Positions 16,375 to 62,131 of a stretch of DNA of 64,000 nucleotides are shown here, piece after piece. Source of the DNA: Escherichia coli. GTDB lineage: Bacteria; Pseudomonadota; Gammaproteobacteria; Enterobacterales; Enterobacteriaceae. The notes under the pieces were generated by a model. That model saw only the letters and a list, made by a program, of their open reading frames with translations. It did no database searches and was not told where the DNA came from. The stretch lies in NCBI RefSeq assembly GCF_024502345.1, contig NZ_JALDNN010000001.1, one strand, 5' to 3'. The translations under genes were made by a program, and so were the position numbers. How positions within the stretch are numbered: the stretch's first letter is position 1; each line of letters starts with the position of its first letter.

Positions 16375-17658
16375 GTGAACACATTTTCAGTTTCCCGTCT
16401 GGCGCTGGCATTGGCTTTTGGCGTGACGCTGACCGCCTGTAGCTCAACCCCGCCCGATCAACGTCCTTCTGATCAAACCGCGCCTGGTACCTCTTCTCGC
16501 CCGATTCTGTCGGCAAAAGAAGCGCAGAATTTCGATGCTCAACACTATTTTGCATCCCTGACACCAGGTGCTGCAGCGTGGAATCCTTCCCCGATTACCC
16601 TGCCTGCGCAACCTGACTTTGTTGTCGGCCCGGCGGGCACTCAAGGTGTAACGCATACCACGATTCAGGCGGCGGTAGATGCGGCAATTATCAAGCGTAC
16701 CAACAAGCGCCAGTATATTGCCGTGATGCCTGGTGAGTATCAGGGAACGGTATATGTCCCTGCCGCTCCGGGTGGAATTACTCTGTACGGTACAGGTGAA
16801 AAACCGATTGATGTGAAGATTGGGCTTTCCCTTGATGGTGGCATGAGCCCTGCCGACTGGCGTCACGACGTCAACCCGCGCGGCAAATATATGCCAGGTA
16901 AACCAGCGTGGTATATGTACGATAGCTGCCAGAGCAAACGCAGCGACAGTATCGGTGTTCTCTGCTCTGCGGTCTTCTGGTCACAAAACAATGGCCTGCA
17001 ACTGCAAAATCTGACCATCGAAAACACGCTGGGCGATAGCGTAGATGCAGGTAACCATCCGGCGGTGGCACTGCGTACTGATGGTGACCAGGTACAGATT
17101 AACAACGTTAACATTCTCGGTCGTCAGAACACCTTCTTTGTCACCAACAGCGGTGTGCAGAACCGTCTGGAAACGAATCGTCAGCCGCGTACGCTGGTGA
17201 CCAACAGCTACATTGAAGGGGATGTGGATATCGTTTCTGGTCGCGGCGCAGTGGTGTTCGATAACACCGAATTCCGCGTGGTGAACTCACGTACTCAGCA
17301 AGAAGCGTATGTGTTTGCACCGGCTACGCTGTCCAACATTTACTACGGTTTCCTCGCCGTAAACAGCCGTTTCAATGCTTTCGGTGATGGTGTGGCGCAA
17401 CTGGGCCGCTCGCTGGATGTTGATGCCAATACCAACGGTCAGGTGGTGATCCGTGATAGCGCCATCAACGAAGGTTTTAACACGGCTAAACCGTGGGCCG
17501 ATGCGGTGATCTCTAATCGTCCGTTTGCGGGTAATACCGGCAGCGTAGATGATAACGACGAAATACAGCGCAATCTGAATGACACTAACTACAACCGCAT
17601 GTGGGAATACAATAACCGCGGCGTGGGTAGTAAAGTGGTTGCAGAGACGAAGAAGTAA
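16375..17658 (+). CDS. ybhC: Outer-membrane lipoprotein YbhC (pectinesterase-like fold)
   Basis: 427 aa; lipobox LTAC near N-terminus. Confidence 0.9.
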   Translation: MNTFSVSRLALALAFGVTLTACSSTPPDQRPSDQTAPGTSSRPILSAKEAQNFDAQHYFASLTPGAAAWNPSPITLPAQPDFVVGPAGTQGVTHTTIQAAVDAAIIKRTNKRQYIAVMPGEYQGTVYVPAAPGGITLYGTGEKPIDVKIGLSLDGGMSPADWRHDVNPRGKYMPGKPAWYMYDSCQSKRSDSIGVLCSAVFWSQNNGLQLQNLTIENTLGDSVDAGNHPAVALRTDGDQVQINNVNILGRQNTFFVTNSGVQNRLETNRQPRTLVTNSYIEGDVDIVSGRGAVVFDNTEFRVVNSRTQQEAYVFAPATLSNIYYGFLAVNSRFNAFGDGVAQLGRSLDVDANTNGQVVIRDSAINEGFNTAKPWADAVISNRPFAGNTGSVDDNDEIQRNLNDTNYNRMWEYNNRGVGSKVVAETKK

Positions 17659-17671
17659 GAGCAATTAACTA

Positions 17672-17878
<207 letters not shown>

Positions 17879-17891
17879 CACATGGCGCTTT

Positions 17892-20153
17892 TTACATCTG
17901 ACGGTTTTTATTGAAGTTAATCAAACTACCCGCCTTGATAATCTCGCGCTCTTCAGCAGTCAGACTTTCCATATAGAGCGTAATTTCCGTTACCGGCGCA
18001 TCTTCATGGATCACATAACCTTTAAACGTCGTACCCGGATTATCCAGCGCCGCTTTAATGCCAGGGATGTAAATGTAATCCCCCACTTCAAAGGTTGGCA
18101 CTTCCGCCATCTGCAGCGGTAACATCCCCCAGTTGATGACGTTAGAACGGTAGCGTTTAGTCGCGTACTCTTCGGCAATATTCGCTAGACCGCCAATCAC
18201 ACGCTGGCAGCTCGCCGCCTGTTCACGCGCAGAACCATCGCCTGGTTTCACCGCATATACCATGCTGCCAATTTCAGTTTGCAGCGGATCAATATGCTCC
18301 TGACCAGCAATCTGCTTAATGCGCGCAAACACCTCTGTCAGCTCGCTGACATTCCCCGCCAGACGCTGATTTTCCAGCTCAGCAGTCGCTTTACTTCTGC
18401 CAACATAACCGGGATCGCGGCGTGACAGGGTAAACTCCGCCAGACCAATCGGATTTGAACGATAAGAAGAGGTTTCACCGGAAGGAATCAGTTCGTCGGT
18501 GGTGGTCACTTCGTCGAGGATCTTCGAGCACACTTTCAGGACGATATTGTCAGTCAGCGCACCCAATTCCGGCCAGTCTTTAATGTTCGGTCCGTAAATC
18601 AGCGGTTGCTGAGTTGCCCCTTTCACAAAGCCCTGATAAACACGGTTTTTATACGGCGTTACATCGAAGGCGTACTCCGGCACGTTGTCCCAGCAATCAA
18701 GTTCGCTGGCAGAGGTTAAATAGCCACCGTTTGCCGCAGTCGCAGCGATAGAACGAGCGTCCATCAACGCCACCGCTGACATCTGCCCATTAGCTGGCTT
18801 AGAGCCTTCGCGGTTCGGGAAGTTACGCGTGGTGTGGCGAATACTCAAACCGTTGTTGATTGGCGTATCGCCCGCGCCAAAGCATGGGCCGCAGAACGCG
18901 GTTCTGATGATTGCGCCTGCGCCAATCAAATCTGCTACCACACCTTTTTTGGCGAGATCCATAAACACCGGCTGTGATGACGGGTAAACTGCCAGCGAGA
19001 AGGTGTCATTGCCACAGGATTGACCGCGCAGTGCATTCGCCGCCGCGATGACGTTTTCGTAGTTACCGCCAGAACAGCCCGCGATAATCCCCTGCTGCAC
19101 TTTCAGGCGACCATTTTCCACTTTATCCAGCAGCGAGAGTTTGGCTTTACCGTGCGCCACGCGTTCGGACTCAATTTCAATCTCACGCAGAATGTCGGTC
19201 AGGTTCTGGTTCAGTGTGTCGATTTCATACACGTTGCTCGGGTGGAACGGCAGCGCAATCATTGGTTTGATGGCGCTTAAATCAACGCTGATGCAGCCAT
19301 CGTAGTACGCCATCGGTTGAGGGTTAAGCTGGCAGTAATCCTGGCCGCGACCGTGCAGCGCCAGCCAGTTATGGACTTCTTCATCGGTTTGCCAGACAGA
19401 ACTTAAACAGGTCGTTTCCGTGGTCATAACGTCAACGCTGTTACGGAAATCGGTAGAGAGCGCAGCAACACCGGGACCTACGAATTCCATCACTTTGTTT
19501 TTGACGTAGCCGTTTTTGAACACGGCACCGATGATAGCCAGCGCCACATCCTGCGGCCCCACATACGGCGCTGGTTTTCCGGTCAGATGCACCGCAACCA
19601 CGCCCGGATAGTCGATATCCCAGGTGTCATTAAGCAGCTGTTTTACCAACTCACCGCCGCCCTCACCGACTGCCATTGTCCCTAATGCACCGTAACGGGT
19701 GTGGCTGTCTGACCCGAGGATCATTTTGCCGCCGCCTGCCATCATCTCACGCATATATTGATGGATGACCGCAATGTGCGGAGGCACAAAAATACCGCCA
19801 TAACGCTGGGCCGCCGATAAACCAAAAACATGGTCATCACCGTTAATAGTGCCGCCGACGGCGCAGAGTGAGTTATGGCAGTTGGTCAGCACATACGGCA
19901 GCGGGAAACGTTCCATACCGGACGCTTTAGCGGTCTGTACAATACCAACAAAGGTAATATCGTGAGAGGCTAATGAATCAAACTTAATTTTAAGTTTATC
20001 CATATTTCCGGACGTATTATGCGAAGAGAGAATAGACCAGGCAATAGTGCCTTTTTTGGCTTCTTCTTTTTTAATTTCGCCGGTGAAATGTTCTTCGGCA
20101 ATTATTTCGTTATTACTGGCGAGAAACACGCCTTTTTCAGATAACTTGATCAT
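17892..20153 (-). CDS. ybhJ: Aconitase-family (4Fe-4S hydro-lyase) protein YbhJ
   Basis: Aconitase-like Cys ligand context (CGPCFGAG); start placed at MIKLSEKG (753 aa) from memory of K-12 length. Confidence 0.85.
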
Positions 20154-20335
20154 CAAATGCTCCAGATATCTGCGCACCGTGAAGTGCGCAGAAAGATAAT
20201 AAATGGATATATTCTAAATAATTCGAGTTGCAGGAAGGCGACAAGTGAGTGAATCCCCAGGAGCTTACATAAGTAAGTGACTGGGGTGAGCGAACGCAAA
20301 CGCAGCACATGCAACTTGAAGTATGACGAGTATAT

Positions 20336-21769
20336 TTACAGCATGTTCCAGCCGATCAGCATATTCCACCACCACACGCCGAGGGTGATATGCACCAGGA
20401 AGGTTAATATCGTCAGTACCGCACCGACCAACCACCAGGATTTAATATCGTTGTAACCCACGCCAAAGATGACCGGACCTGCCGCGCCGCCATAGTGAGT
20501 AACCATGCCGCCATAGGAGTTGGAGAACAACAGTGCCAGCGCGGTTAACATTAACGGTGCGCCGGAGACGTTCGCCAGCATGGCAAATACCGGTAACATA
20601 GCAACGATATAGGCACTACCGGAAGCGAAGAAATAACGCACGATAATGCTGAGGAAAATAATAACGAAGAAAGCAACGTTACCGTGACCATCAAATGCCA
20701 GGTTATTTTTAAAGACTTCAGCTAACCATTCGAAGAATTTAACTTTCGATAATAAGGAGCTTAATCCGATAATACCGCCGTACCAGATTAAGGTATTCCA
20801 GCCGCCTTTATTTTTAACCACGTCTTCCCAGGTAACGATACCCAGCAGCAGCATGGTCGCCATAACAACGATTGCCACGGTGGATTCATCACCCCCCAGA
20901 GACTTACTGAAAATCCAGCCCAGCAGCGCCAGCACAAAGACACCGAGCAGCATTTTTTCGCGGATTTTCATCGGTCCCAGTTCGGCAAGGCCCGCTTTAG
21001 CGATGGTTTTATTATCCACCTTCTTAATTTCTGGCGGATACATGGTATAAATCACCAGCGGGGTGACCAGCAGCATAATGATGCCCGGCAATCCGGCGGC
21101 CAGTGCCCATCCACCCCAGCTAATTTGCAGGTGCAGAATGTCGTTGATCATTTTCAGCGCCAGAATGTTCCCCGCCATTGCGGTAAAGAACATATAGCTG
21201 GTGGTTTTGGTGACCATGTAAATGGACATCATCAGGTAATGTCCGACACGACGCGGACTTTTTTCCGGTTCGGACCCCAAAGCCACCGCCACGCTGTTGA
21301 TGATCGGTAACACAATGCCGCCCGCACGCGCGGTGTTAGACGGTGTTGCCGGAGCCAATACCAGATCGAGGAATACCGTAACGTAACCCAGACCCAGCGT
21401 GGTGTTACCGATTTTACCAATCAGCAGATAGGCAATACGTTTACCTAAACCGGTGGTCACAAATGCGGCGCTTAAGGTAAACGCCGAGAACACCAGCCAG
21501 GTAGTACCTGAAGAGTAACCGCTTAATACGGCGGTGGTCTTAAACGCACCGTCGGATAAGTTACCGACCACCACCATGGAGGCAGCAACGGCAATTAACA
21601 GTACGACAGGTTCCGGGAAAGGCTTGATAACCAGACCCACAATGGCCGCCAGGTAAATACCAAAAAGCACCCACGCCAGTTCGCTTAATCCTGCCGGAGC
21701 TGGCATAAAGCCAATAATACATGGGATCGCTAATATCACAATTAGCTTCCATAACGATTTCTTATTCAT
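20336..21769 (-). CDS. ybhI: DASS-family anion:sodium symporter YbhI
   Basis: 477 aa polytopic membrane protein. Confidence 0.9.
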   Translation of the reverse strand: MNKKSLWKLIVILAIPCIIGFMPAPAGLSELAWVLFGIYLAAIVGLVIKPFPEPVVLLIAVAASMVVVGNLSDGAFKTTAVLSGYSSGTTWLVFSAFTLSAAFVTTGLGKRIAYLLIGKIGNTTLGLGYVTVFLDLVLAPATPSNTARAGGIVLPIINSVAVALGSEPEKSPRRVGHYLMMSIYMVTKTTSYMFFTAMAGNILALKMINDILHLQISWGGWALAAGLPGIIMLLVTPLVIYTMYPPEIKKVDNKTIAKAGLAELGPMKIREKMLLGVFVLALLGWIFSKSLGGDESTVAIVVMATMLLLGIVTWEDVVKNKGGWNTLIWYGGIIGLSSLLSKVKFFEWLAEVFKNNLAFDGHGNVAFFVIIFLSIIVRYFFASGSAYIVAMLPVFAMLANVSGAPLMLTALALLFSNSYGGMVTHYGGAAGPVIFGVGYNDIKSWWLVGAVLTILTFLVHITLGVWWWNMLIGWNML

Positions 21770-21844
21770 TTAAAATCCTGTTCTTTCTGTATGACTCATA
21801 CAGAAGTCCTTTATTGATTGTCCTTATCCTGACAACGAATTTTT

Positions 21845-22897
21845 TCAGGGAAGATAAACTTCACCGGAAAATATTTTTCTGGTCGTCCGAATAACAGATG
21901 CGCGTAACGTCGTGGCATCCTGACCTTCATTACTTAAATGAACGTCGAGCGCACCACTGGGGTGTTCAATATTGATATTGCCATATCCTACAGAAGGGAC
22001 GATTTGTCGGGTGACGGTGCCTTCCAATGCACAACTACTGGAAATAGCAATAGCACCGGTTATCGCCAACGCGCGATGGCAAGAATGCGGCATAAAATAA
22101 CGCACATTAATTGCCCCGCCTTTCTGCGCTGGAGAAATAAGCACAGGTTTAGGGATAACCATATTACTGACATCACCTAAGCCCATTGCTTTACCCGCTT
22201 GTAGACGGATAGATTCAATGCGGGCTAATAATGCTTTGTCGGCATCCAGTTCCGCCGGTAATTCATAGCCTGTTTTTCCCAGATATTCAGCCGGAATAAT
22301 GACGACTGGCATCGCCATATCGATACAGGTCACCGGGACATCGTCAAAATAATCAATCTGATTATCAGTCGGGAAAACTTTTCCGGTTTTGGTTCCAGCG
22401 GCATTCAGGAAAGTGAGCGCAACCGGTGCGGCAGTACCCGGTACGCCGTCAATTCTGGCGCTACCCTCGTACTCGACAACACCATTTGGTGTTTGCACAT
22501 CAGCTTCGATAAACGTACCCGTATTGACGTTGCGGATACGTACGCGGGTAACTGGCGAAGTCGCTGCAATCAAACCATTTTCAATGGCGAATGCCCCAAC
22601 GCCAGACAGCATATTGCCGCAGTTAGGCGTGGTATCGACACGTTGCTCATGGACGATAACTTGAGCAAACAGATAATCGACATCAGCACGCGGATCGCTG
22701 GAACGGCTAATAATGGCGACTTTACTGGTCAGCGGATTACCGCCGCCAATACCGTCAATTTCCAGATCGTTACCGGAACCCATAATTGCCATCAATATTT
22801 TATCGCGCTGCGTTTGATCTTCGGGTAAATGTTCCGCTAACAGGAACGCGCCCCTCGAGGTTCCACCTCGCATCATCACGCAGGGTATTTTTTTCAT
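21845..22897 (-). CDS. ybhH: PrpF/AcnD-accessory-like isomerase YbhH
   Basis: 350 aa; gene order ybhH-ybhI-ybhJ as in K-12. Confidence 0.85.
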   Translation of the reverse strand: MKKIPCVMMRGGTSRGAFLLAEHLPEDQTQRDKILMAIMGSGNDLEIDGIGGGNPLTSKVAIISRSSDPRADVDYLFAQVIVHEQRVDTTPNCGNMLSGVGAFAIENGLIAATSPVTRVRIRNVNTGTFIEADVQTPNGVVEYEGSARIDGVPGTAAPVALTFLNAAGTKTGKVFPTDNQIDYFDDVPVTCIDMAMPVVIIPAEYLGKTGYELPAELDADKALLARIESIRLQAGKAMGLGDVSNMVIPKPVLISPAQKGGAINVRYFMPHSCHRALAITGAIAISSSCALEGTVTRQIVPSVGYGNINIEHPSGALDVHLSNEGQDATTLRASVIRTTRKIFSGEVYLP

Positions 22898-23080
22898 AAT
22901 AATGCCCTCAATTTAAAAACATAACTTATTGCGATATGGTTACATTAAGGGCAAAGCATCTCTAATGACTTTAGCTCAACGATTAATAACATTTTTTCAT
23001 TAATTTAAGTTGGCTAAATGCAGTTAAAATTTTTAACGGCCAGCCACCCAAAATCAACGCTTCCATTTTCCGGAGTAATA

Positions 23081-24034
23081 ATGAAGCATGAATTATCAAG
23101 TATGAAGGCATTTGTCATACTGGCAGAGTCCAGTTCATTTAACAATGCCGCTAAATTACTCAATATTACGCAACCTGCATTAACGCGAAGAATAAAAAAG
23201 ATGGAGGAAGATTTACATATTCAACTATTTGAGCGTACAACTCGCAAGGTTACGTTAACAAAAGCAGGAAAAAGGTTGCTCCCGGAGGCGCGGGAATTAA
23301 TAAAGAAATTCGATGAAACGCTTTTTAATATTCGTGATATGAATGCTTATCATCGTGGTATGGTGACGTTAGCGTGTATTCCGACCGCAGTATTTTATTT
23401 TTTACCGCTGGCAATCGGTAAATTTAATGAGCTGTATCCCAATATTAAAGTGCGGATTCTGGAACAAGGCACGAATAATTGCATGGAATCGGTGCTATGT
23501 AACGAATCAGACTTTGGCATAAACATGAACAACGTCACAAATTCATCCATTGATTTTAGCCCACTGGTCAACGAGCCGTTCGTGCTGGCCTGTCGGCGTG
23601 ACCATCCATTGGCCAAAAAGCAGCTTGTAGAATGGCAGGAGTTAGTGGGTTACAAAATGATTGGCGTACGCTCCTCCAGCGGCAACCGACTGTTGATAGA
23701 ACAACAGCTAGCCGACAAGCCCTGGAAGCTGGACTGGTTTTACGAAGTGCGTCATCTTTCGACGTCATTAGGACTGGTGGAGGCAGGACTGGGGATTTCA
23801 GCGCTTCCTGGTCTGGCAATGCCCCATGCGCCCTATTCTTCGATTATTGGTATCCCACTGGTGGAACCCGTTATACGTCGGACATTGGGGATTATTCGCC
23901 GCAAAGATGCCGTGCTTTCTCCGGCAGCTGAACGCTTTTTTGCCTTGCTGATTAATTTGTGGACTGACGATAAAGACAATTTGTGGACCAATATCGTCGA
24001 ACGCCAGAGACATGCGTTACAGGAGATAGGTTAA
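23081..24034 (+). CDS. ybhD: LysR-family transcriptional regulator YbhD
   Basis: N-terminal LysR HTH; divergent from ybhH; start placed at MKHELSS. Confidence 0.85.
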   Translation: MKHELSSMKAFVILAESSSFNNAAKLLNITQPALTRRIKKMEEDLHIQLFERTTRKVTLTKAGKRLLPEARELIKKFDETLFNIRDMNAYHRGMVTLACIPTAVFYFLPLAIGKFNELYPNIKVRILEQGTNNCMESVLCNESDFGINMNNVTNSSIDFSPLVNEPFVLACRRDHPLAKKQLVEWQELVGYKMIGVRSSSGNRLLIEQQLADKPWKLDWFYEVRHLSTSLGLVEAGLGISALPGLAMPHAPYSSIIGIPLVEPVIRRTLGIIRRKDAVLSPAAERFFALLINLWTDDKDNLWTNIVERQRHALQEIG

Positions 24035-24074
24035 TACACCGGCGCAGGAGAGACTGCGCCGGGTAAATCAGCGG

Positions 24075-25106
<1,032 letters not shown>

Positions 25107-54167: not shown

Positions 54168-54714
54168 ACCCACCCAGTCGCGAAAAATGGCCTGCGTTAT
54201 TGCCAGACGTAATAAAACCGTTGATTAACGTTACTCATACTGGTAGCACCTTCATGTACCTCTCTTTTTTACGAAAAATCAAAAGAGCTAACTAAGGTCA
54301 TAATTCGCATGAATCATTAACCATTTGTTATTTTCAACATTATTTTTACATTAAGCAGAAATGAATTGCAGTGAAATTCGACTTAAATCTTATGAAATGC
54401 ATTTACTCATGGCTAAAACCACGTCACAAAAATGCAAATTAGAAGTAGATCACAATTATCTCAATACATTAAATCAAGTTAATTTTAAAAATTTAACATT
54501 CATGTCATTAGTTGACATAACACACTGAATTAACATGGAAATTTAAAAACACACTTTAAACAATCATTTCCCGAAAGACATTTTGAAAATAGATCAATTG
54601 CAACATTACGGTCAGATAAAGACACTCCTGTGATATTAAACCTGTGCCGTTATGAACGGCCATAAATACGACGTGTGTAACTTATTTTACTCTCTGTCTT
54701 ACAAAGGATTACCC

Positions 54715-55164
54715 ATGAAGAAAGCAACACTTGTGATTGGCGTTATTGGCGCGGACTGCCATGCAGTAGGCAATAAAGTTCTGGACCGCGTTTTTAGCAA
54801 CCACGACTTCAGAGTCATTAATCTGGGCGTAATGGTCAGCCAGGACGAATATATTGATGCTGCCATCGAAACTGGCGCTGACGCGATTATCGTCTCCTCT
54901 ATCTATGGGCATGGCGATATCGACTGTCTGGGCATGCGCGAACGCTGCATCGAGCGTGGACTGGGTGACATCCTCCTCTATGTGGGCGGTAACCTGGTGG
55001 TCGGAAAACATGACTTCGCTGACGTGGAAACCAAGTTCAAAGAGATGGGATTTGATCGCGTCTTTGCCCCAAGTCATGACTTAGAAGATGTTTGTCAGCT
55101 GATGGCCCACGATATCAATCAACGTCATGACGTTGATACTCGTATTCTTGAAGAGGCTATCTGA
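54715..55164 (+). CDS. glmS: Glutamate mutase sigma subunit (B12-binding)
   Basis: Cobalamin-binding DxHxxG motif ([10 protein letters not shown]); close match to remembered Clostridium GlmS/MutS; start at MKKATLVIG. Not the GlcN-6-P synthase glmS. Confidence 0.88.
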
Positions 55165-56552
55165 TGCAAATCGTCTCTGTCGATATTGGATCGACGTGGA
55201 CCAAAGCTGCCCTCTTCACCCGGGAGGGGGACGCGTTAACGTTGGTTAACCACGTACTGACCCCAACCACCACCCATCATCTGGCGAAGGGGTTTTTCTC
55301 CAGCCTGAACCAGGTGTTAAACGTAGATAATGCCCTCCCCCTGTTAAACAGCGGTGAGGTTGCATTGAAGTATTCCTCCTCTGCCAAAGGTGGGCTGGCG
55401 GTTGCCGCAATGGGATTGGTGCCTTCTATCACCCTGGAAACCGCGAAAGTAACCGCTCACTCTGCGGGGGCTAAAATTGCGCAATATTACGCCTACAAGC
55501 TGAACCGCCGTGATATCCAGGCACTGGAAGAAACGCAGCCCGATATTCTCTTGTTCACCGGCGGCACCGACGGCGGAGAAGAAAGCTACGGACTGAATAA
55601 CGCCCGTGTGCTGGCAGAATCCAAACTCGACTGCGCCATTATTTATGCCGGAAACCGGGATATTCAGGACGAGGTGCAGGAGATCCTCGGGCATAAAGAC
55701 CTGACCATCGTCGACAATGTTCTGCCCGATCTTGACCATCCGAACCCTTTAGCCGCACGCCAGGCTATTTGCGACATATTCCTTAAACGCATCGTTAAAG
55801 GGAAAGGGCTGGATGTCATTGTTGATAAAACAGGCGAAGAACCAATGCCGACACCATGGACGGTCTTTGAACTGGTCAAGGCAATCAGTAACGTCGATCA
55901 CAGCTGGAAAGAGTTCATGCTGATCGACATGGGCGGCGCAACCACCGATGTTTATTCCGCCGGTGCCAACACGCTCTCGCCCGACACCGTTTTACACGGC
56001 GTACCGGAACCCTTCGTAAAACGGACGGTGGAAGGCGATCTGGGAATGCGCGTCTCGGCAGTGGTGGTTGGTGAAAGTGCGAAAGAGTTAGTCAATGTGA
56101 ATTTTGCTCAGCAACCCGCACAGCTGGACGCTTTTTATCATTACCTCCGTCATCTAGTCGCTCATCCCGACTACTTACCCGCAAATGCAGAAGAGAAATA
56201 TTTCGATACCGTCCTGGCCGGACTGTGTGTGGGTTATGCCACCGAAAGACATGCGGGCACCAAAAAAGAGGTCTGCACCTGCGTCGGCAATGTCGATTTA
56301 CAGATGGGACGTGACCTGACAACCGTGCGTAAAGTCGTCGGATCCGGCGGATGGCTCTCGCGTGCCAGTCAGTTCGATATGCATCACTGGTTGAAATACC
56401 GCGAGTTAAACGACGACGGTAAACGCATTCTCTTACCGACCGAATTTGAATATTACCGCGATTCCCGGGGGCTATTACCACTGCTGGCAAACGTCGCCAG
56501 AGTCGATCCGCTGGCCGCCGCGCGCACCAGTATTCAATGCTTAACCCTATAA
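55164..56552 (+). CDS. glmL: Glutamate mutase-associated protein GlmL/MutL (actin-like ATPase fold)
   Basis: 462 aa; N-terminal VDIGSTWTKAALF phosphate-1 motif; sits between S and E subunit genes; ATGA overlap with glmS. Confidence 0.8.
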   Translation: MQIVSVDIGSTWTKAALFTREGDALTLVNHVLTPTTTHHLAKGFFSSLNQVLNVDNALPLLNSGEVALKYSSSAKGGLAVAAMGLVPSITLETAKVTAHSAGAKIAQYYAYKLNRRDIQALEETQPDILLFTGGTDGGEESYGLNNARVLAESKLDCAIIYAGNRDIQDEVQEILGHKDLTIVDNVLPDLDHPNPLAARQAICDIFLKRIVKGKGLDVIVDKTGEEPMPTPWTVFELVKAISNVDHSWKEFMLIDMGGATTDVYSAGANTLSPDTVLHGVPEPFVKRTVEGDLGMRVSAVVVGESAKELVNVNFAQQPAQLDAFYHYLRHLVAHPDYLPANAEEKYFDTVLAGLCVGYATERHAGTKKEVCTCVGNVDLQMGRDLTTVRKVVGSGGWLSRASQFDMHHWLKYRELNDDGKRILLPTEFEYYRDSRGLLPLLANVARVDPLAAARTSIQCLTL

Positions 56553-56570
56553 CAATTAAGGCTGCAATCA

Positions 56571-58016
56571 ATGGAACTTCGAAATAAGAAATTAACCCAT
56601 GACGAATTCATGACCGAGCGGCAACAGGTACTGAAAACCTGGGAAACCGGCAAGGATGTTGAAAACTTTGAAGATGGCGTTAAATACCAACAAAACATTC
56701 CTGAGCATAAACGCTTCTCTCATGCCCTGCTGAAAGCAGACAAGGAAGGTAAAACCCTTAGCCAACCGCGCGCAGGTGTGGCGCTGATGGACGAACACAT
56801 CGAACTGCTGAAAACACTACAAGAAGAGTGCGATCTGCTGCCAAGCACCATCGATGCATATACCCGTCTGAATCGGTACGAAGAAGCGGCTGTAGGGATT
56901 AAAAAATCCATCGAAGCCGGAACCTCTAAACTGAACGGTTTACCGGTAGTTAACCATGGTGTCGCAGCTTGCCGTCGCCTCACCGAAACCCTGCAAAAAC
57001 CGCTACAGATCCGCCACGGCACGCCAGATGCGCGTCTGCTGGCTGAAATCTCAATGGCCAGCGGCTTTACCAGTTATGAAGGCGGTGGCATTTCCTACAA
57101 CATTCCGTATGCCAAACGTGTAACGCTGGAAAAATCGATCCGCGACTGGCAGTACTGCGACCGTTTAATGGGGATGTACGAAGAACACGGGATCCGCATC
57201 AACCGCGAACCGTTTGGCCCACTAACGGGTACGCTGATCCCGCCGTTTATCTCGCACTCTATCGCGATAATCGAAGGCTTGCTGGCGCTGGAACAGGGTG
57301 TGAAATCTATCACCGTTGGTTATGGCCAGGTCGGCAGCCTGACGCAGGATGTTGCGGCGATCCAGTCTCTGCGTGAACTTGCACACGAATACTTTCAGAG
57401 CTATGGCTATACCGACTATGAATTAAGTACCGTGTTTCACCAGTGGATGGGCGGCTTTCCGGAAGACGAATCGAAAGCGTTCGCTATTATCTCCTGGGGC
57501 GCAGCCGTCGCGGGGATGTCTGGTGCCACCAAACTCATCACCAAAAGTCCGCACGAAGCCTGGGGCATTCCGACTGCCGCTGCCAACATTCAGGGGCTGA
57601 AAGCCTCCCGCCAGATGCTCAACATGGTCAATGAGCAGAAATTCCCGCCGTGCCCTGCGGTTGAACTGGAAATTGAACTGATTAAGAGCGAGGTTCGCGC
57701 AGTACTGAATAAAGTGTTCGAACTGGGTAATGGTGATATTGCGCGCGGAACGGTGCTGGCATTTGAAGCGGGCGTACTGGATGTGCCGTTTGCGCCAGCC
57801 GCCTGCAACGCGGGCAAAATTCTTCCGGTCCGTGACAACACCGGCGCGATACGCGTACTGGAAGCCGGAGCCGTTCCATTGCCAAAAGATATTCTCGACC
57901 TCCACCACGATTACGTTGCGGAACGCGCACGCTGTGAAGGACGCCAACCGACATTCCAGATGGTTGTAGATGACATCAATGCTGTATCCCACAGTAAATT
58001 AATAGGAAGACCATAA
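56571..58016 (+). CDS. glmE: Glutamate mutase epsilon (catalytic) subunit
   Basis: 481 aa; extensive identity to remembered Clostridium GlmE (LPSTIDAYTR, HGTPD, VFHQWMGGFP, KTPHEA). Confidence 0.9.
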   Translation: MELRNKKLTHDEFMTERQQVLKTWETGKDVENFEDGVKYQQNIPEHKRFSHALLKADKEGKTLSQPRAGVALMDEHIELLKTLQEECDLLPSTIDAYTRLNRYEEAAVGIKKSIEAGTSKLNGLPVVNHGVAACRRLTETLQKPLQIRHGTPDARLLAEISMASGFTSYEGGGISYNIPYAKRVTLEKSIRDWQYCDRLMGMYEEHGIRINREPFGPLTGTLIPPFISHSIAIIEGLLALEQGVKSITVGYGQVGSLTQDVAAIQSLRELAHEYFQSYGYTDYELSTVFHQWMGGFPEDESKAFAIISWGAAVAGMSGATKLITKSPHEAWGIPTAAANIQGLKASRQMLNMVNEQKFPPCPAVELEIELIKSEVRAVLNKVFELGNGDIARGTVLAFEAGVLDVPFAPAACNAGKILPVRDNTGAIRVLEAGAVPLPKDILDLHHDYVAERARCEGRQPTFQMVVDDINAVSHSKLIGRP

Positions 58017-59257
58017 TGAAAATAAAACAGGCCCTGTTCACCGCTGGCTATTCCTCATTCTATTTCGATGACCAGCAGGCGATAAAAAACGGAGCGGGTC
58101 ATGACGGCTTTTTTTATACCGGGGAGCCGGTAACACAGGGGTTTAACGCCGTTCGTCAGGCCGGGGAGTGCGTATCGGTACAGTTGATTCTGGAAAACGG
58201 CGCGGTCGCCGTAGGTGACTGTACTGCCGTACAGTATTCCGGGGCAGGCGGTCGCGATCCACTGTTCCTCGCAGAGCACTTTATTCCGTTCCTCAACGAC
58301 CATATCAAGCCATTACTGGTAGGCCGCGATGTGGATGCTTTCCTGCCGAATGCCCGTTTCTTCGACAAATTGCGTATTGACGGCAACTTGCTGCATACCG
58401 CCGTGCGCTACGGATTATCACAGGCGCTGCTTGATGCTACCGCGCTGGCAACCGGCCGTCTGAAAACTGAAGTGGTCTGTGATGAATGGCAGTTGCCACG
58501 CGTGGCGGAATCCATTCCATTATTTGGTCAGAGCGGCGACGATCGATATATCGCCGTCGATAAGATGATCCTTAAAGGCATCGACGTGCTGCCCCATGCG
58601 CTGATTAATAACGTCGAAGAGAAGCTGGGCTTTAAAGGTGAAAAACTGCGCGAATATGTCCACTGGCTGTCGGATCGCATTCTGAGCAAGCGCACCAGCG
58701 CACGCTACCACCCAACCCTGCACATCGATGTATACGGCACTATCGGTCTGATCTTCGATATGGATCCGCTTCGCTGTGCGCAATACATCGCCAGCCTGGA
58801 AAAAGAAGCGCAAGGCCTGCCGCTCTACATCGAAGGGCCGGTCGATGCCGGTAACAAGCCCGATCAAATTCGCCTGCTGACCGCGATTACCAAAGAGCTG
58901 ACGCGCCTCGGTTCCGGCGTGAAAATTGTGGCCGATGAATGGTGTAACACCTACCAGGATATTGTTGATTTCACTGATGCTGCCAGTTGTCACATGGTGC
59001 AAATCAAAACCCCGGATCTGGGCAGTATTCACAACATCGTCGATGCGGTTCTTTACTGCAACAGCCACAGCATGGAAGCGTACCAGGGCGGCACCTGCAA
59101 TGAAACTGATGTCAGTGCCCGCACCTGTGTCCACGTCGCCCTTGCCGCTCGCCCTATGCGTATGCTGGTAAAACCAGGGATGGGCTTTGACGAAGGCCTC
59201 GATATCGTCTTCAACGAAATGAATCGTACTATCGCGCTGTTGCAGGCTAAGGATTAA
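58016..59257 (+). CDS. mal: 3-methylaspartate ammonia-lyase
   Basis: 413 aa; enolase-superfamily; strong identity to remembered Clostridium MAL (GAGHDGF, VQYSGAGGRDPLFLA, HMVQIKTPDLG); ATGA overlap with glmE. Confidence 0.92.
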   Translation: MKIKQALFTAGYSSFYFDDQQAIKNGAGHDGFFYTGEPVTQGFNAVRQAGECVSVQLILENGAVAVGDCTAVQYSGAGGRDPLFLAEHFIPFLNDHIKPLLVGRDVDAFLPNARFFDKLRIDGNLLHTAVRYGLSQALLDATALATGRLKTEVVCDEWQLPRVAESIPLFGQSGDDRYIAVDKMILKGIDVLPHALINNVEEKLGFKGEKLREYVHWLSDRILSKRTSARYHPTLHIDVYGTIGLIFDMDPLRCAQYIASLEKEAQGLPLYIEGPVDAGNKPDQIRLLTAITKELTRLGSGVKIVADEWCNTYQDIVDFTDAASCHMVQIKTPDLGSIHNIVDAVLYCNSHSMEAYQGGTCNETDVSARTCVHVALAARPMRMLVKPGMGFDEGLDIVFNEMNRTIALLQAKD

Positions 59258-61433: not shown

Positions 61434-61709
61434 GTGGCTTCTGTTTCTATCAGCTGTCCCTCCTGTTCAGCTACTGACGGGGTGGTGCGTAACGGCAAAA
61501 GCACCGCCGGACATCAGCGCTATCTCTGCTCTCACTGCCGTAAAACATGGCAACTGCAGTTCACTTACACCGCTTCTCAACCCGGTACGCACCAGAAAAT
61601 CATTGATATGGCCATGAATGGCGTTGGATGCCGGGCAACCGCCCGCATTATGGGCGTTGGCCTCAACACGATTTTCCGCCATTTAAAAAACTCAGGCCGC
61701 AGTCGGTAA
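61434..61709 (+). CDS. insA: IS1 protein InsA
   Basis: 91 aa; zinc-finger CPSC..CSHC; matches remembered InsA. Confidence 0.95.
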
Positions 61710-62131
61710 CCTCGCGCATACAGCCGGGCAGTGACGTCATCGTCTGCGCGGAAATGGACGAACAGTGGGGATACGTCGGGGCTAAATCGCGCCAGCGCTG
61801 GCTGTTTTACGCGTATGACAGGCTCCGGAAGACGGTTGTTGCGCACGTATTCGGTGAACGCACTATGGCGACGCTGGGGCGTCTTATGAGCCTGCTGTCA
61901 CCCTTTGACGTGGTGATATGGATGACGGATGGCTGGCCGCTGTATGAATCCCGCCTGAAGGGAAAGCTGCACGTAATCAGCAAGCGATATACGCAGCGAA
62001 TTGAGCGGCATAACCTGAATCTGAGGCAGCACCTGGCACGGCTGGGACGGAAGTCGCTGTCGTTCTCAAAATCGGTGGAGCTGCATGACAAAGTCATCGG
62101 GCATTATCTGAACATAAAACACTATCAATAA
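61628..62131 (+). CDS. insB: IS1 transposase InsB (expressed as InsAB' by -1 frameshift)
   Basis: 167 aa ORF in -1 frame relative to insA. Confidence 0.93.

Follow-up and report, generated by a model that had tools for sequence, protein, structure and literature searches.

Background

[quoted passage not shown] The present study concerns a locus that may equip Escherichia coli to use this acid, the ybhD/ybhH-ybhI-ybhJ module, as found in a 64,000-nucleotide stretch of an E. coli chromosome (contig NZ_JALDNN010000001.1; this whole stretch is referred to below as the window). The four genes encode a LysR-type regulator, a PrpF-family isomerase, a DASS-family carboxylate transporter and a hydro-lyase of the aconitase superfamily. 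Forage grasses and sugar cane contain trans-aconitate as one of their major organic acids, and the compound also inhibits aconitase (PMC11495376); bacterial systems that act upon it have been described.

In Bacillus velezensis, the regulator TarR senses trans-aconitate, and the product of the system enters the TCA cycle (PMC11495376). Acidaminococcus fermentans ferments trans-aconitate by way of citrate, oxaloacetate and pyruvate, according to the portion of its genome paper that treats this pathway and cites Hartel and Buckel 1996; the same paper places a gene pair, 'MatC carrier / aconitate hydratase domain protein', under that pathway (PMC3035267). Isomerases of the PrpF family that act on aconitate are likewise established: Adi1 is one (PMC12492653), and PrpF itself has been crystallised with trans-aconitate (PMC5690661). 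As regards the E. coli genes, the existence of the y-gene module and its repression by YbhD were already known. An earlier note on this DNA called the module functionally unassigned and, in agreement with that, no substrate is defined in the literature that we searched. What is added here is a specific substrate assignment, together with the placement of YbhJ in a large family centred on gut anaerobes.

Results and discussion

A predicted route for trans-aconitate

We infer that ybhD/ybhH-ybhI-ybhJ may constitute a repressor-controlled, normally silent module for the use of trans-aconitate. In the pathway that we envisage, YbhI would import trans-aconitate, possibly in exchange for succinate, and YbhH, by means of Lys59 and Cys93, would shift the double bond through a 1,3-proton shift to yield cis-aconitate. 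YbhJ, a divergent [4Fe-4S] aconitase, would then hydrate cis-aconitate to citrate or isocitrate, and this product could pass either into citrate lyase (citCDEFXG) under anaerobic conditions or into the TCA cycle; K-12 encodes citrate lyase at the cit locus. YbhD, acting on the dyad ATTAAT-N11-ATTAAT, would hold the operon repressed in the absence of an effector, presumably either the substrate itself or cis-aconitate. To the specific proposal, in which trans-aconitate is taken up by YbhI, isomerised by YbhH and hydrated by YbhJ, we give an even chance. The broader reading, in which the module carries out uptake, allylic isomerisation and Fe-S-dependent hydration of an unsaturated tricarboxylate, we consider probable.

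The four genes and their conservation

Three of the genes lie on the minus strand. ybhH (21845..22897) encodes a 350-residue PrpF-family allylic (double-bond-shifting) isomerase, the predicted aconitate delta-isomerase; ybhI (20336..21769) encodes a 477-residue DASS-family carboxylate transporter, predicted to be an importer or exchanger of tricarboxylates; and ybhJ (17892..20153) encodes a 753-residue aconitase-superfamily [4Fe-4S] hydro-lyase, recognized by Pfam and by the NCBIfam model NF008503 and predicted to hydrate cis-aconitate. On the plus strand, ybhD (23081..24034) encodes a 317-residue LysR-type regulator that has been published as a repressor of ybhH. The earlier note had described a LysR gene divergent from PrpF-like, DASS and aconitase-family genes, and both the families (Pfam and NCBIfam) and the orientation bear this out. 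The range that it assigned to the whole module, 20336-24034, holds only ybhI, ybhH and ybhD and has to be extended, with ybhJ lying outside it at 17892-20153.

The K-12 record contains the same four genes with identical spacing, named as a putative regulator, isomerase, tricarboxylate transporter and hydratase. The ybh region, at a coverage of at least 80%, is present in 5233 of 5426 complete E. coli genomes (96%), and the ratio of non-synonymous to synonymous substitution rates (dN/dS) against Escherichia albertii is 0.03-0.04 for all four genes, with a value of 0.03 for ybhJ. ybhD, ybhH, ybhI and ybhJ are genuine, intact genes under strong purifying selection.

YbhH has the catalytic residues of a PrpF-fold isomerase

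YbhH matches the PrpF profile PF04303 from end to end (E 3e-168; residues 1-350 cover profile positions 1-371 of 371). Among solved structures the best match is the deposited crystal structure of E. coli YbhH itself (PDB 6OTV, 'Putative isomerase YbhH'), with E 2e-232 across the full 350 residues and identity throughout the first 135, and the next structural relatives are LigU (E 3e-93), Mii (PDB 3G7K, E 2e-67) and PrpF. Lys59 and Cys93 of YbhH align without gaps with two positions that vary among three deposited LigU chains (Lys/Met and Cys/Ser); the same positions are Lys and Cys in Mii, and the pair corresponds to the catalytic Lys/Cys of the PrpF fold (Lys66/Cys100 in LigU, Lys73/Cys107 in PrpF). 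YbhH is not a PrpF equivalog, as its score on TIGR02334 is 187 bits against a cutoff of 441, and no prp genes are found near ybhH in the window.

Outside of the enteric orthologues, the nearest relatives of YbhH belong to Pseudomonas, Dickeya and Azotobacter and are 62-64% identical to it. The relative in Dickeya dadantii (62%) heads an operon that continues with an MFS transporter, a protein of the FAA-hydrolase family and citC-citD-citE-citF, while in Pseudomonas a LysR/YbhH-like pair precedes genes for two carboxylate transporters (SDF, then CitMHS) and an OprD-family porin. No gallate or protocatechuate 4,5-cleavage genes stand beside the YbhH gene in the window or in the Klebsiella, Edwardsiella, Dickeya and Pseudomonas loci. 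The sole RraA-like gene of the Dickeya locus is 7 kb away, and eleven called genes of unrelated families separate it from the isomerase. Because the loci of YbhH relatives are devoid of gallate and protocatechuate cleavage genes, the name '4-oxalomesaconate tautomerase' that NCBI applies to the YbhH clade is probably an over-extension.

YbhJ belongs to a distinct aconitase subfamily

Pfam assigns YbhJ to PF00330 Aconitase (E 5e-88, residues 49-478) and PF00694 Aconitase_C (E 3e-6), and the protein scores 1541 bits on NF008503, an NCBIfam model named 'hydratase'; on the AcnD model it reaches 63 bits against a cutoff of 1420. With residue correspondences given in the numbering of pig mitochondrial aconitase, the [4Fe-4S] ligands Cys360, Cys421 and Cys424 (pig Cys358, Cys421 and Cys424) are invariant in the family alignment, and YbhJ also keeps Ser641, His93, His131, His151, Asp149, Glu246, Arg443, Arg448 and Arg643, the equivalents of pig Ser642, His101/147/167, Asp165, Glu262 and Arg447/452/644. 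The motif Asp149-Ser150-His151 (DSH) is conserved.

A further arginine, Arg565, bears on the substrate. It is invariant in the family, where it stands in the motif 'SYRSN', and aligns with 'SRRGN' of AcnA and 'SMRSN' of a 650-residue aconitase-family paralogue; LeuD has 'GQQPN' at this place. The counterpart in the pig enzyme is Arg580, which we take to bind the third (gamma) carboxylate of citrate. This region was compared in a MAFFT alignment with E. coli AcnA, LeuD, the 650-residue paralogue and what we take to be the corresponding pig fragment, since phmmer searches against solved aconitases left it unaligned. At the level of this alignment, YbhJ appears to possess the arginine for a third carboxylate; as the residue is kept where LeuD has Gln, a tricarboxylate substrate is favoured over a C5 dicarboxylate.

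The mitochondrial, AcnA, 650-residue and LeuC branches all conserve three residues, Asp100, Asn258 and Asn446, that the YbhJ family alone replaces; judged by its residues, this family is a distinct subfamily. Two distant relatives, P0148 and P0155 (37-39% identical to YbhJ), were excluded as degenerate, having lost the CGPC cluster motif and the DSH motif; their genes adjoin Macro-domain genes. YbhJ-like proteins of this kind, 37-39% identical and lacking CGPC and DSH, are encoded at two loci (L015, 8001-10115; L016, 1175-3436), each directly followed by a Macro-domain gene, and are probably non-catalytic derivatives.

YbhJ relatives keep company with citrate enzymes

A scan of 100,044 species genomes, one per species, gave at least 600 matched stretches and at least 599 confirmed relatives of YbhJ, the best 80 of which were analysed: ORFs (open reading frames) were called and compared with reference proteins, and the context was defined as everything within 6 kb of the YbhJ-like gene. 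Beyond those of E. albertii and Citrobacter, these best 80 include proteins from strict gut and rumen anaerobes that are 65-72% identical to YbhJ; Enterocloster, Hungatella, Blautia, Butyrivibrio, Clostridium, Megasphaera, Acidaminococcus fermentans, Collinsella and Ellagibacter are all represented. In their contexts, citrate synthase occurs at 12 loci, an isocitrate-dehydrogenase-like gene at 15, citDEF at 5, a PrpF-like gene at 5 and a LysR gene at 17, and about half of the approximately 44 loci outside Collinsella and the enterics have at least one citrate enzyme. At one locus (L022), the YbhJ-like gene is followed by citrate synthase (NF010635, 587 bits, cutoff 426) and then by an isocitrate dehydrogenase recognized by NCBIfam. 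At another (L023), a LysR gene diverges from YbhJ-citDEFGC, the CitF of which scores 654 bits on the NCBIfam model TIGR01584 (cutoff 501). Citramalate and itaconate enzymes were found in none of the contexts of YbhJ and YbhH relatives examined. Since citrate is the metabolite common to all of these contexts, a true aconitase function of YbhJ is the most economical reading.

Collinsella accounts for about 34 of the best 80 loci, and these were uninformative. In the one analysed in detail (L050, 5430-12301), the YbhJ-like gene is by itself, immediately downstream of a dnaK-grpE-dnaJ-hspR heat-shock operon; the other Collinsella loci contain no citrate-related, PrpF-like or transporter reference match within 6 kb. 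A recurrent Firmicute cluster (L014, 199-10202; L043, 9265-16340) unites a 650-residue aconitase-family protein and one or two YbhJ paralogues with a PrpF-like isomerase, a 393-residue Iso_dh-family dehydrogenase and a LysR gene, to which L043 adds a 2HCT carrier. It has the appearance of a catabolic pathway of its own for tricarboxylates, as yet uncharacterised.

Among enterics, the four-gene unit shifts as a block among unrelated chromosomal sites in E. coli, Klebsiella and Edwardsiella. The module of K. aerogenes, K. variicola and K. oxytoca is located between rihC and the locus for citrate fermentation, citAB-oadGAB-citS-citC, 2 kb from the latter, and in Edwardsiella tarda it is near a phage integrase. 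The ybhI orthologue of E. tarda is frameshifted (L003, 8483-9915), with ybhD, ybhH and ybhJ intact. In the window, G+C content falls to 0.42-0.47 over ybhD-ybhH (22000-24000) against 0.50-0.55 in the flanks. The low G+C and the unrelated sites in Klebsiella and Edwardsiella fit horizontal acquisition.

A more ambitious scenario can be put forward tentatively, and we regard it as possible rather than probable. YbhJ may represent an unrecognised, widespread aconitase lineage whose active site has been rewired (Asp100 to Cys, Asn258 to Val, Asn446 to Thr) and which serves many strict gut anaerobes (among them Lachnospiraceae, Clostridium, Acidaminococcus and Collinsella) as their TCA-branch or citrate-fermentation aconitase. 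Its horizontal transfer into the Enterobacteriaceae, where it would have been joined to an older proteobacterial YbhD-YbhH unit, might then have given E. coli, as part of its core genome, a cryptic anaerobic trans-aconitate fermentation feeding citrate lyase.

Transport and regulation

YbhI is a member of the DASS family (Pfam Na_sulph_symp, E 1e-193; TIGR00785 dass, 552 bits). Over its full length (approximately 480 residues), it shares 33-35% identity with two E. coli antiporters, CitT (citrate:succinate) and TtdT (tartrate:succinate), which are 45% identical to each other. The earlier description of YbhI as a 'DASS anion symporter' holds for the family; 'symporter' comes from the family name only, the nearest characterised relatives being antiporters. 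Our literature search found no transport data for YbhI. Exchange with succinate is plausible, given these relatives.

The earlier note also overlooked the published role of YbhD. In a ybhD deletion mutant, ybhH is strongly up-regulated, marking YbhD as a repressor, and a single YbhD site, at ybhH/ybhI, was found by ChIP-exo (chromatin immunoprecipitation with exonuclease digestion; PMC9068703, published in 2022). YbhD has the attributes of a LysR-type regulator: Pfam HTH_1 and LysR_substrate domains, a divergent target operon and a T-N11-A dyad. It is 59% identical to the LysR protein of Dickeya and 55% to that of Pseudomonas, both of which are encoded divergently from YbhH-like genes.

The ybhD/ybhH control region (22898..23080, divergent) contains the candidate YbhD operator, ATTAAT-N11-ATTAAT at 22982-23004, which was located by cross-species alignment together with a scan for T-N11-A. 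The dyad is kept in Escherichia (including E. albertii), Citrobacter and Edwardsiella, and its left half in Klebsiella; an identical ATTAAT-N11-ATTAAT is present upstream of the YbhH-like gene of D. dadantii. A default inverted-repeat search of the control region returned only a 10-nucleotide pair at 23020-23040. Scans for promoters and terminators over 17600-24200 gave no excess over shuffled sequence (7 against 9.7 expected and 10 against 7.9) and were uninformative.

Spacers, gene starts and flanks

The 75-bp spacer between ybhH and ybhI (21770..21844, minus strand) holds a hairpin with a 10-bp stem at 21784-21806 and an AGGA ribosome-binding site. Because no T-run follows this hairpin, ybhH and ybhI are probably co-transcribed. 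The spacer between ybhI and ybhJ (20154..20335, minus strand) is 182 bp long, and most of it consists of an ERIC (enterobacterial repetitive intergenic consensus) or IRU (intergenic repeat unit) element, with a second, perfect hairpin immediately 5' of the ribosome-binding site of ybhJ. All 44 bases of the ERIC core at 20249-20292 agreed with what we take to be the ERIC primer sequences, where chance alone would give 0 matches. The spacer RNA has a predicted folding energy of -51.6 kcal/mol (z = -4.6), and no T-run follows either of its hairpins. Given this long spacer, filled largely by the ERIC repeat, co-transcription of ybhJ with ybhHI, as implied by the 'operon' of the earlier note, is plausible. 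The ERIC repeat might lead to differing mRNA levels of ybhHI and ybhJ.

The ERIC-containing spacer is found in K-12 and E. albertii as well, while that of Citrobacter is approximately 68 bp long and lacks the repeat. Klebsiella has at this place an additional gene (L001, 8683-9945) for a 420-residue DASS/CitMHS transporter, which scores 205 bits on the DASS model and is only 20% identical to YbhI. A second LysR gene lies downstream of ybhJ in Klebsiella.

Two gene starts required a decision. Counted on the longest ORF, the LysR helix-turn-helix of YbhD opens at residue 27, and the ATG at 23081 has a GGAG ribosome-binding site before it; ybhD is therefore placed at 23081-24034, with 317 residues. 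The K-12 annotation of 954 nucleotides agrees with this start, and the ATG of the longest ORF at 23018 was rejected on these three grounds. For ybhJ, a GTG start at 20177 was rejected in favour of 20153, as the alignment to NF008503 begins at residue 9 of the longest ORF.

The window covers part of an Escherichia chromosome, with the gene order ybhC, ybhJ, ybhI, ybhH, ybhD, pgl, ybhA, modCBA, modEF, followed by gal, tol-pal and cyd. Between the convergent ybhC and ybhJ, at 17668-17876, are four REP-like (repetitive extragenic palindromic) palindromes arranged as two tandem units of 92/93 bp, and this cluster yields a spurious 135-residue ORF with a repeated peptide. Over 17600-24100, identity to the 5426 complete E. 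coli genomes reaches only 99.1% at best and is mostly 95-99%; that collection therefore holds no near-identical complete genome of the source strain.

Alternative explanations

Several points weigh against the trans-aconitate assignment. We know of no growth of E. coli on trans-aconitate, and no experiment ties the ybh genes to aconitate. On NF033377, the model curated by NCBI for 4-oxalomesaconate tautomerase, YbhH scores 515 bits against a cutoff of 440. The PrpF-like genes of Firmicutes are only 37-41% identical to YbhH, so that on the isomerase side the module of A. fermentans is analogous, not strictly orthologous. In every catalytic member of the YbhJ family aligned, Asp100 has become Cys (Cys92 in YbhJ), Asn258 has become Val (Val242) and Asn446 has become Thr (Thr442), and the motif CTN has become CSG; because of these replacements, the specificity or chemistry of YbhJ may differ from that of aconitase. 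Blank et al. 2002 reportedly observed only that an acnAB mutant kept the same residual aconitase activity when ybhJ was inactivated, which is weak evidence if the operon was repressed in that experiment, as it probably was. Citing that work, a later paper (PMC4054840) describes YbhJ as a 'catalytically inactive paralog' of aconitase, the one statement on its activity found in the literature. Finally, the only reported phenotype of a ybhD mutant concerns growth with L-malate, and regulation of the operon by Nac is cited in the same paper (PMC9068703); the aconitate hypothesis leaves both unexplained.

Two of the rival explanations retain a tricarboxylate as the substrate. Oxalomesaconate is itself a tricarboxylate and differs from aconitate by one carbonyl, and the module might serve a ring-cleavage product of plant polyphenols, with YbhH acting as a true 4-oxalomesaconate isomerase of the LigU/GalD kind and YbhJ replacing the LigJ/GalB hydratase to form 4-carboxy-4-hydroxy-2-oxoadipate. 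The score of YbhH above the OMA_tautomer equivalog cutoff and the standing of LigU as the closest characterised structure, with a shared Lys/Cys pair, speak for this. The neighbours speak otherwise: beside YbhH, in the window and in the Klebsiella, Edwardsiella, Dickeya and Pseudomonas loci, there is no dioxygenase for gallate or protocatechuate, no LigJ/GalB hydratase and no adjoining aldolase, the actual partners being citrate lyase, aconitase-like genes and carboxylate transporters, and close relatives of YbhJ adjoin citrate synthase and isocitrate dehydrogenase. Ring cleavage, moreover, requires O2, but the YbhJ family is centred on strict anaerobes. We consider this explanation quite unlikely. 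Unlikely too, if first in rank among the alternatives, is a pathway after the manner of AcnD and PrpF, in which an imported hydroxy-tricarboxylate (an analogue of citrate, for instance methylcitrate, homocitrate or hydroxycitrate) would be dehydrated by YbhJ to an 'out-of-register' aconitate, after which YbhH would shift the bond and the housekeeping aconitase would rehydrate the product. An aconitase-family dehydratase with a PrpF isomerase is precisely the AcnD/PrpF pairing (PMC5690661), the altered active site of YbhJ could reflect a substituted substrate, and the recurrent Firmicute cluster (L014/L043) joins a PrpF-like protein and an Iso_dh-family dehydrogenase with two or three aconitase paralogues. 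Yet genes for methylcitrate synthase and methylisocitrate lyase are absent from the window and from the Klebsiella, Edwardsiella and Dickeya loci, and the score of YbhJ on the AcnD model falls far below the cutoff. The modules of Dickeya and Pseudomonas consist of isomerase and transporters with no dedicated dehydratase, and the imported compound must therefore itself be the isomerase substrate there.

The remaining two rivals turn to dicarboxylates. The earlier note had proposed uptake and isomerisation or hydration of an unsaturated di- or tricarboxylate, and had suggested cross-talk with C5 dicarboxylates in this strain; itaconate or mesaconate would then be converted by way of citraconate to citramalate or methylmalate, possibly fed by a methylaspartate island. 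The mesaconate-producing module that it reported is truly in the window, with genes for the B12-binding GlmS, GlmL, GlmE and methylaspartate ammonia-lyase (54652-59257), followed by an AtuA-family gene and an IS1 transposase (61628-62131). In addition, the PrpF-family 3-methylitaconate isomerase Mii is the second-closest characterised relative of YbhH, and one database names the Edwardsiella orthologue of YbhJ '2,3-dimethylmalate dehydratase large subunit'. The island is, however, present in only 1135 of the 5426 complete E. coli genomes (21%) and lies approximately 31 kb from a module found in 96%, so that the two are not co-inherited; K-12, we assume, has the module and is without the island. 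The arginine that marks a tricarboxylate is invariant in the YbhJ family and Gln in LeuD, and citramalate and itaconate enzymes are missing from the contexts, as noted above. A C5 substrate is very unlikely and the cross-talk is not upheld, while uptake, isomerisation and hydration survive from the earlier proposal, narrowed by Arg565 and the citrate-enzyme contexts to an aconitate-like tricarboxylate. The least probable explanation is that YbhI and YbhH serve L-malate or dicarboxylates of the 2-oxoglutarate type under nitrogen limitation, with YbhJ non-catalytic or moonlighting in oxidative stress or NADPH supply. It would accommodate the L-malate phenotype and Nac regulation, and the authors of that study suggest an 'L-malate utilisation related' role and define no substrate (PMC9068703). 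Deletion of ybhJ lowers NADPH and H2O2 tolerance, as stated where YbhJ is described as inactive (PMC4054840), and ybhJ is among the oxidative-stress hits of a biofilm screen (PMC10645362). Against this, YbhJ retains every cluster ligand and the catalytic residues listed above under a dN/dS of 0.03, when the degenerate P0148 and P0155 have lost theirs; malate use requires neither an allylic isomerase nor an aconitase, and the four genes travel as a block.

Implications

Four genes of the E. coli core genome that have gone for decades with no assigned function are here brought under one concrete, testable hypothesis. A dedicated route composed of uptake, isomerase and insensitive hydratase in enterics and gut anaerobes would bear on carbon flow in the gut. 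Should the trans-aconitate proposal prove correct, two database names would be corrected, '4-oxalomesaconate tautomerase', which is carried by thousands of proteins of the YbhH clade, and plain 'hydratase' for the YbhJ family, and a new subfamily of aconitases, set apart by the unusual surroundings of its cluster, would be recognized.

Comparison with known systems

LigU/GalD is the closest characterised relative of YbhH in sequence and structure, and has in common with it the catalytic Lys/Cys and a 1,3-allylic proton shift on a tricarboxylate. It differs in its surroundings, as YbhH and its 62-64% identical relatives adjoin citrate lyase or carboxylate transporters and have no 4,5-cleavage neighbours. 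AcnD/PrpF of the 2-methylcitrate cycle of Shewanella oneidensis resembles YbhJ/YbhH in pairing an aconitase-superfamily enzyme with a PrpF-fold Lys/Cys isomerase that shifts the double bond of an aconitate (PMC5690661). The order of events is reversed, since AcnD/PrpF dehydrate and then isomerise, whereas the ybh enzymes would isomerise and then hydrate; the scores of YbhJ (63 bits, cutoff 1420) and YbhH (187 bits, cutoff 441) on the AcnD and PrpF models and the lack of prp genes nearby also set the two systems apart.

Within E. coli, the arrangement is paralleled by ttdR/ttdA-ttdB-ttdT, in which a LysR gene diverges from an operon for an Fe-S hydro-lyase and a DASS carrier. Both ttd and citT-citCDEFXG serve anaerobic carboxylate fermentations that end in oxaloacetate and involve succinate antiport, and their carriers belong to the CitT/TtdT/YbhI group. 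TtdAB is class I fumarase-like, not aconitase-like, the ttd system has no isomerase, and the identity of YbhI to CitT and TtdT is no more than 33-35%. In the TarR-TarA-TarB system of B. velezensis, a LysR gene is similarly divergent from genes for an aconitate isomerase and an importer. TarA belongs to another isomerase family, related to periplasmic binding proteins, and is not a PrpF protein. TarR is an activator and YbhD a reported repressor, and the Tar system has no dedicated aconitase. The Tar importer is described only as a membrane importer (PMC11495376).

The nearest parallel in gene content is that of A. fermentans. Its transporter is of the MatC/CitMHS type instead of DASS, its isomerase is only 41% identical to YbhH, and the link of these genes to the trans-aconitate pathway has been made by annotation, not by genetics. 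As in E. coli, a LysR gene (locus L075) diverges from genes for a PrpF-like protein, a carboxylate transporter and then a hydratase of the YbhJ family, 67% identical to YbhJ, and the A. fermentans route leads through citrate to citrate lyase, an enzyme that E. coli also encodes.

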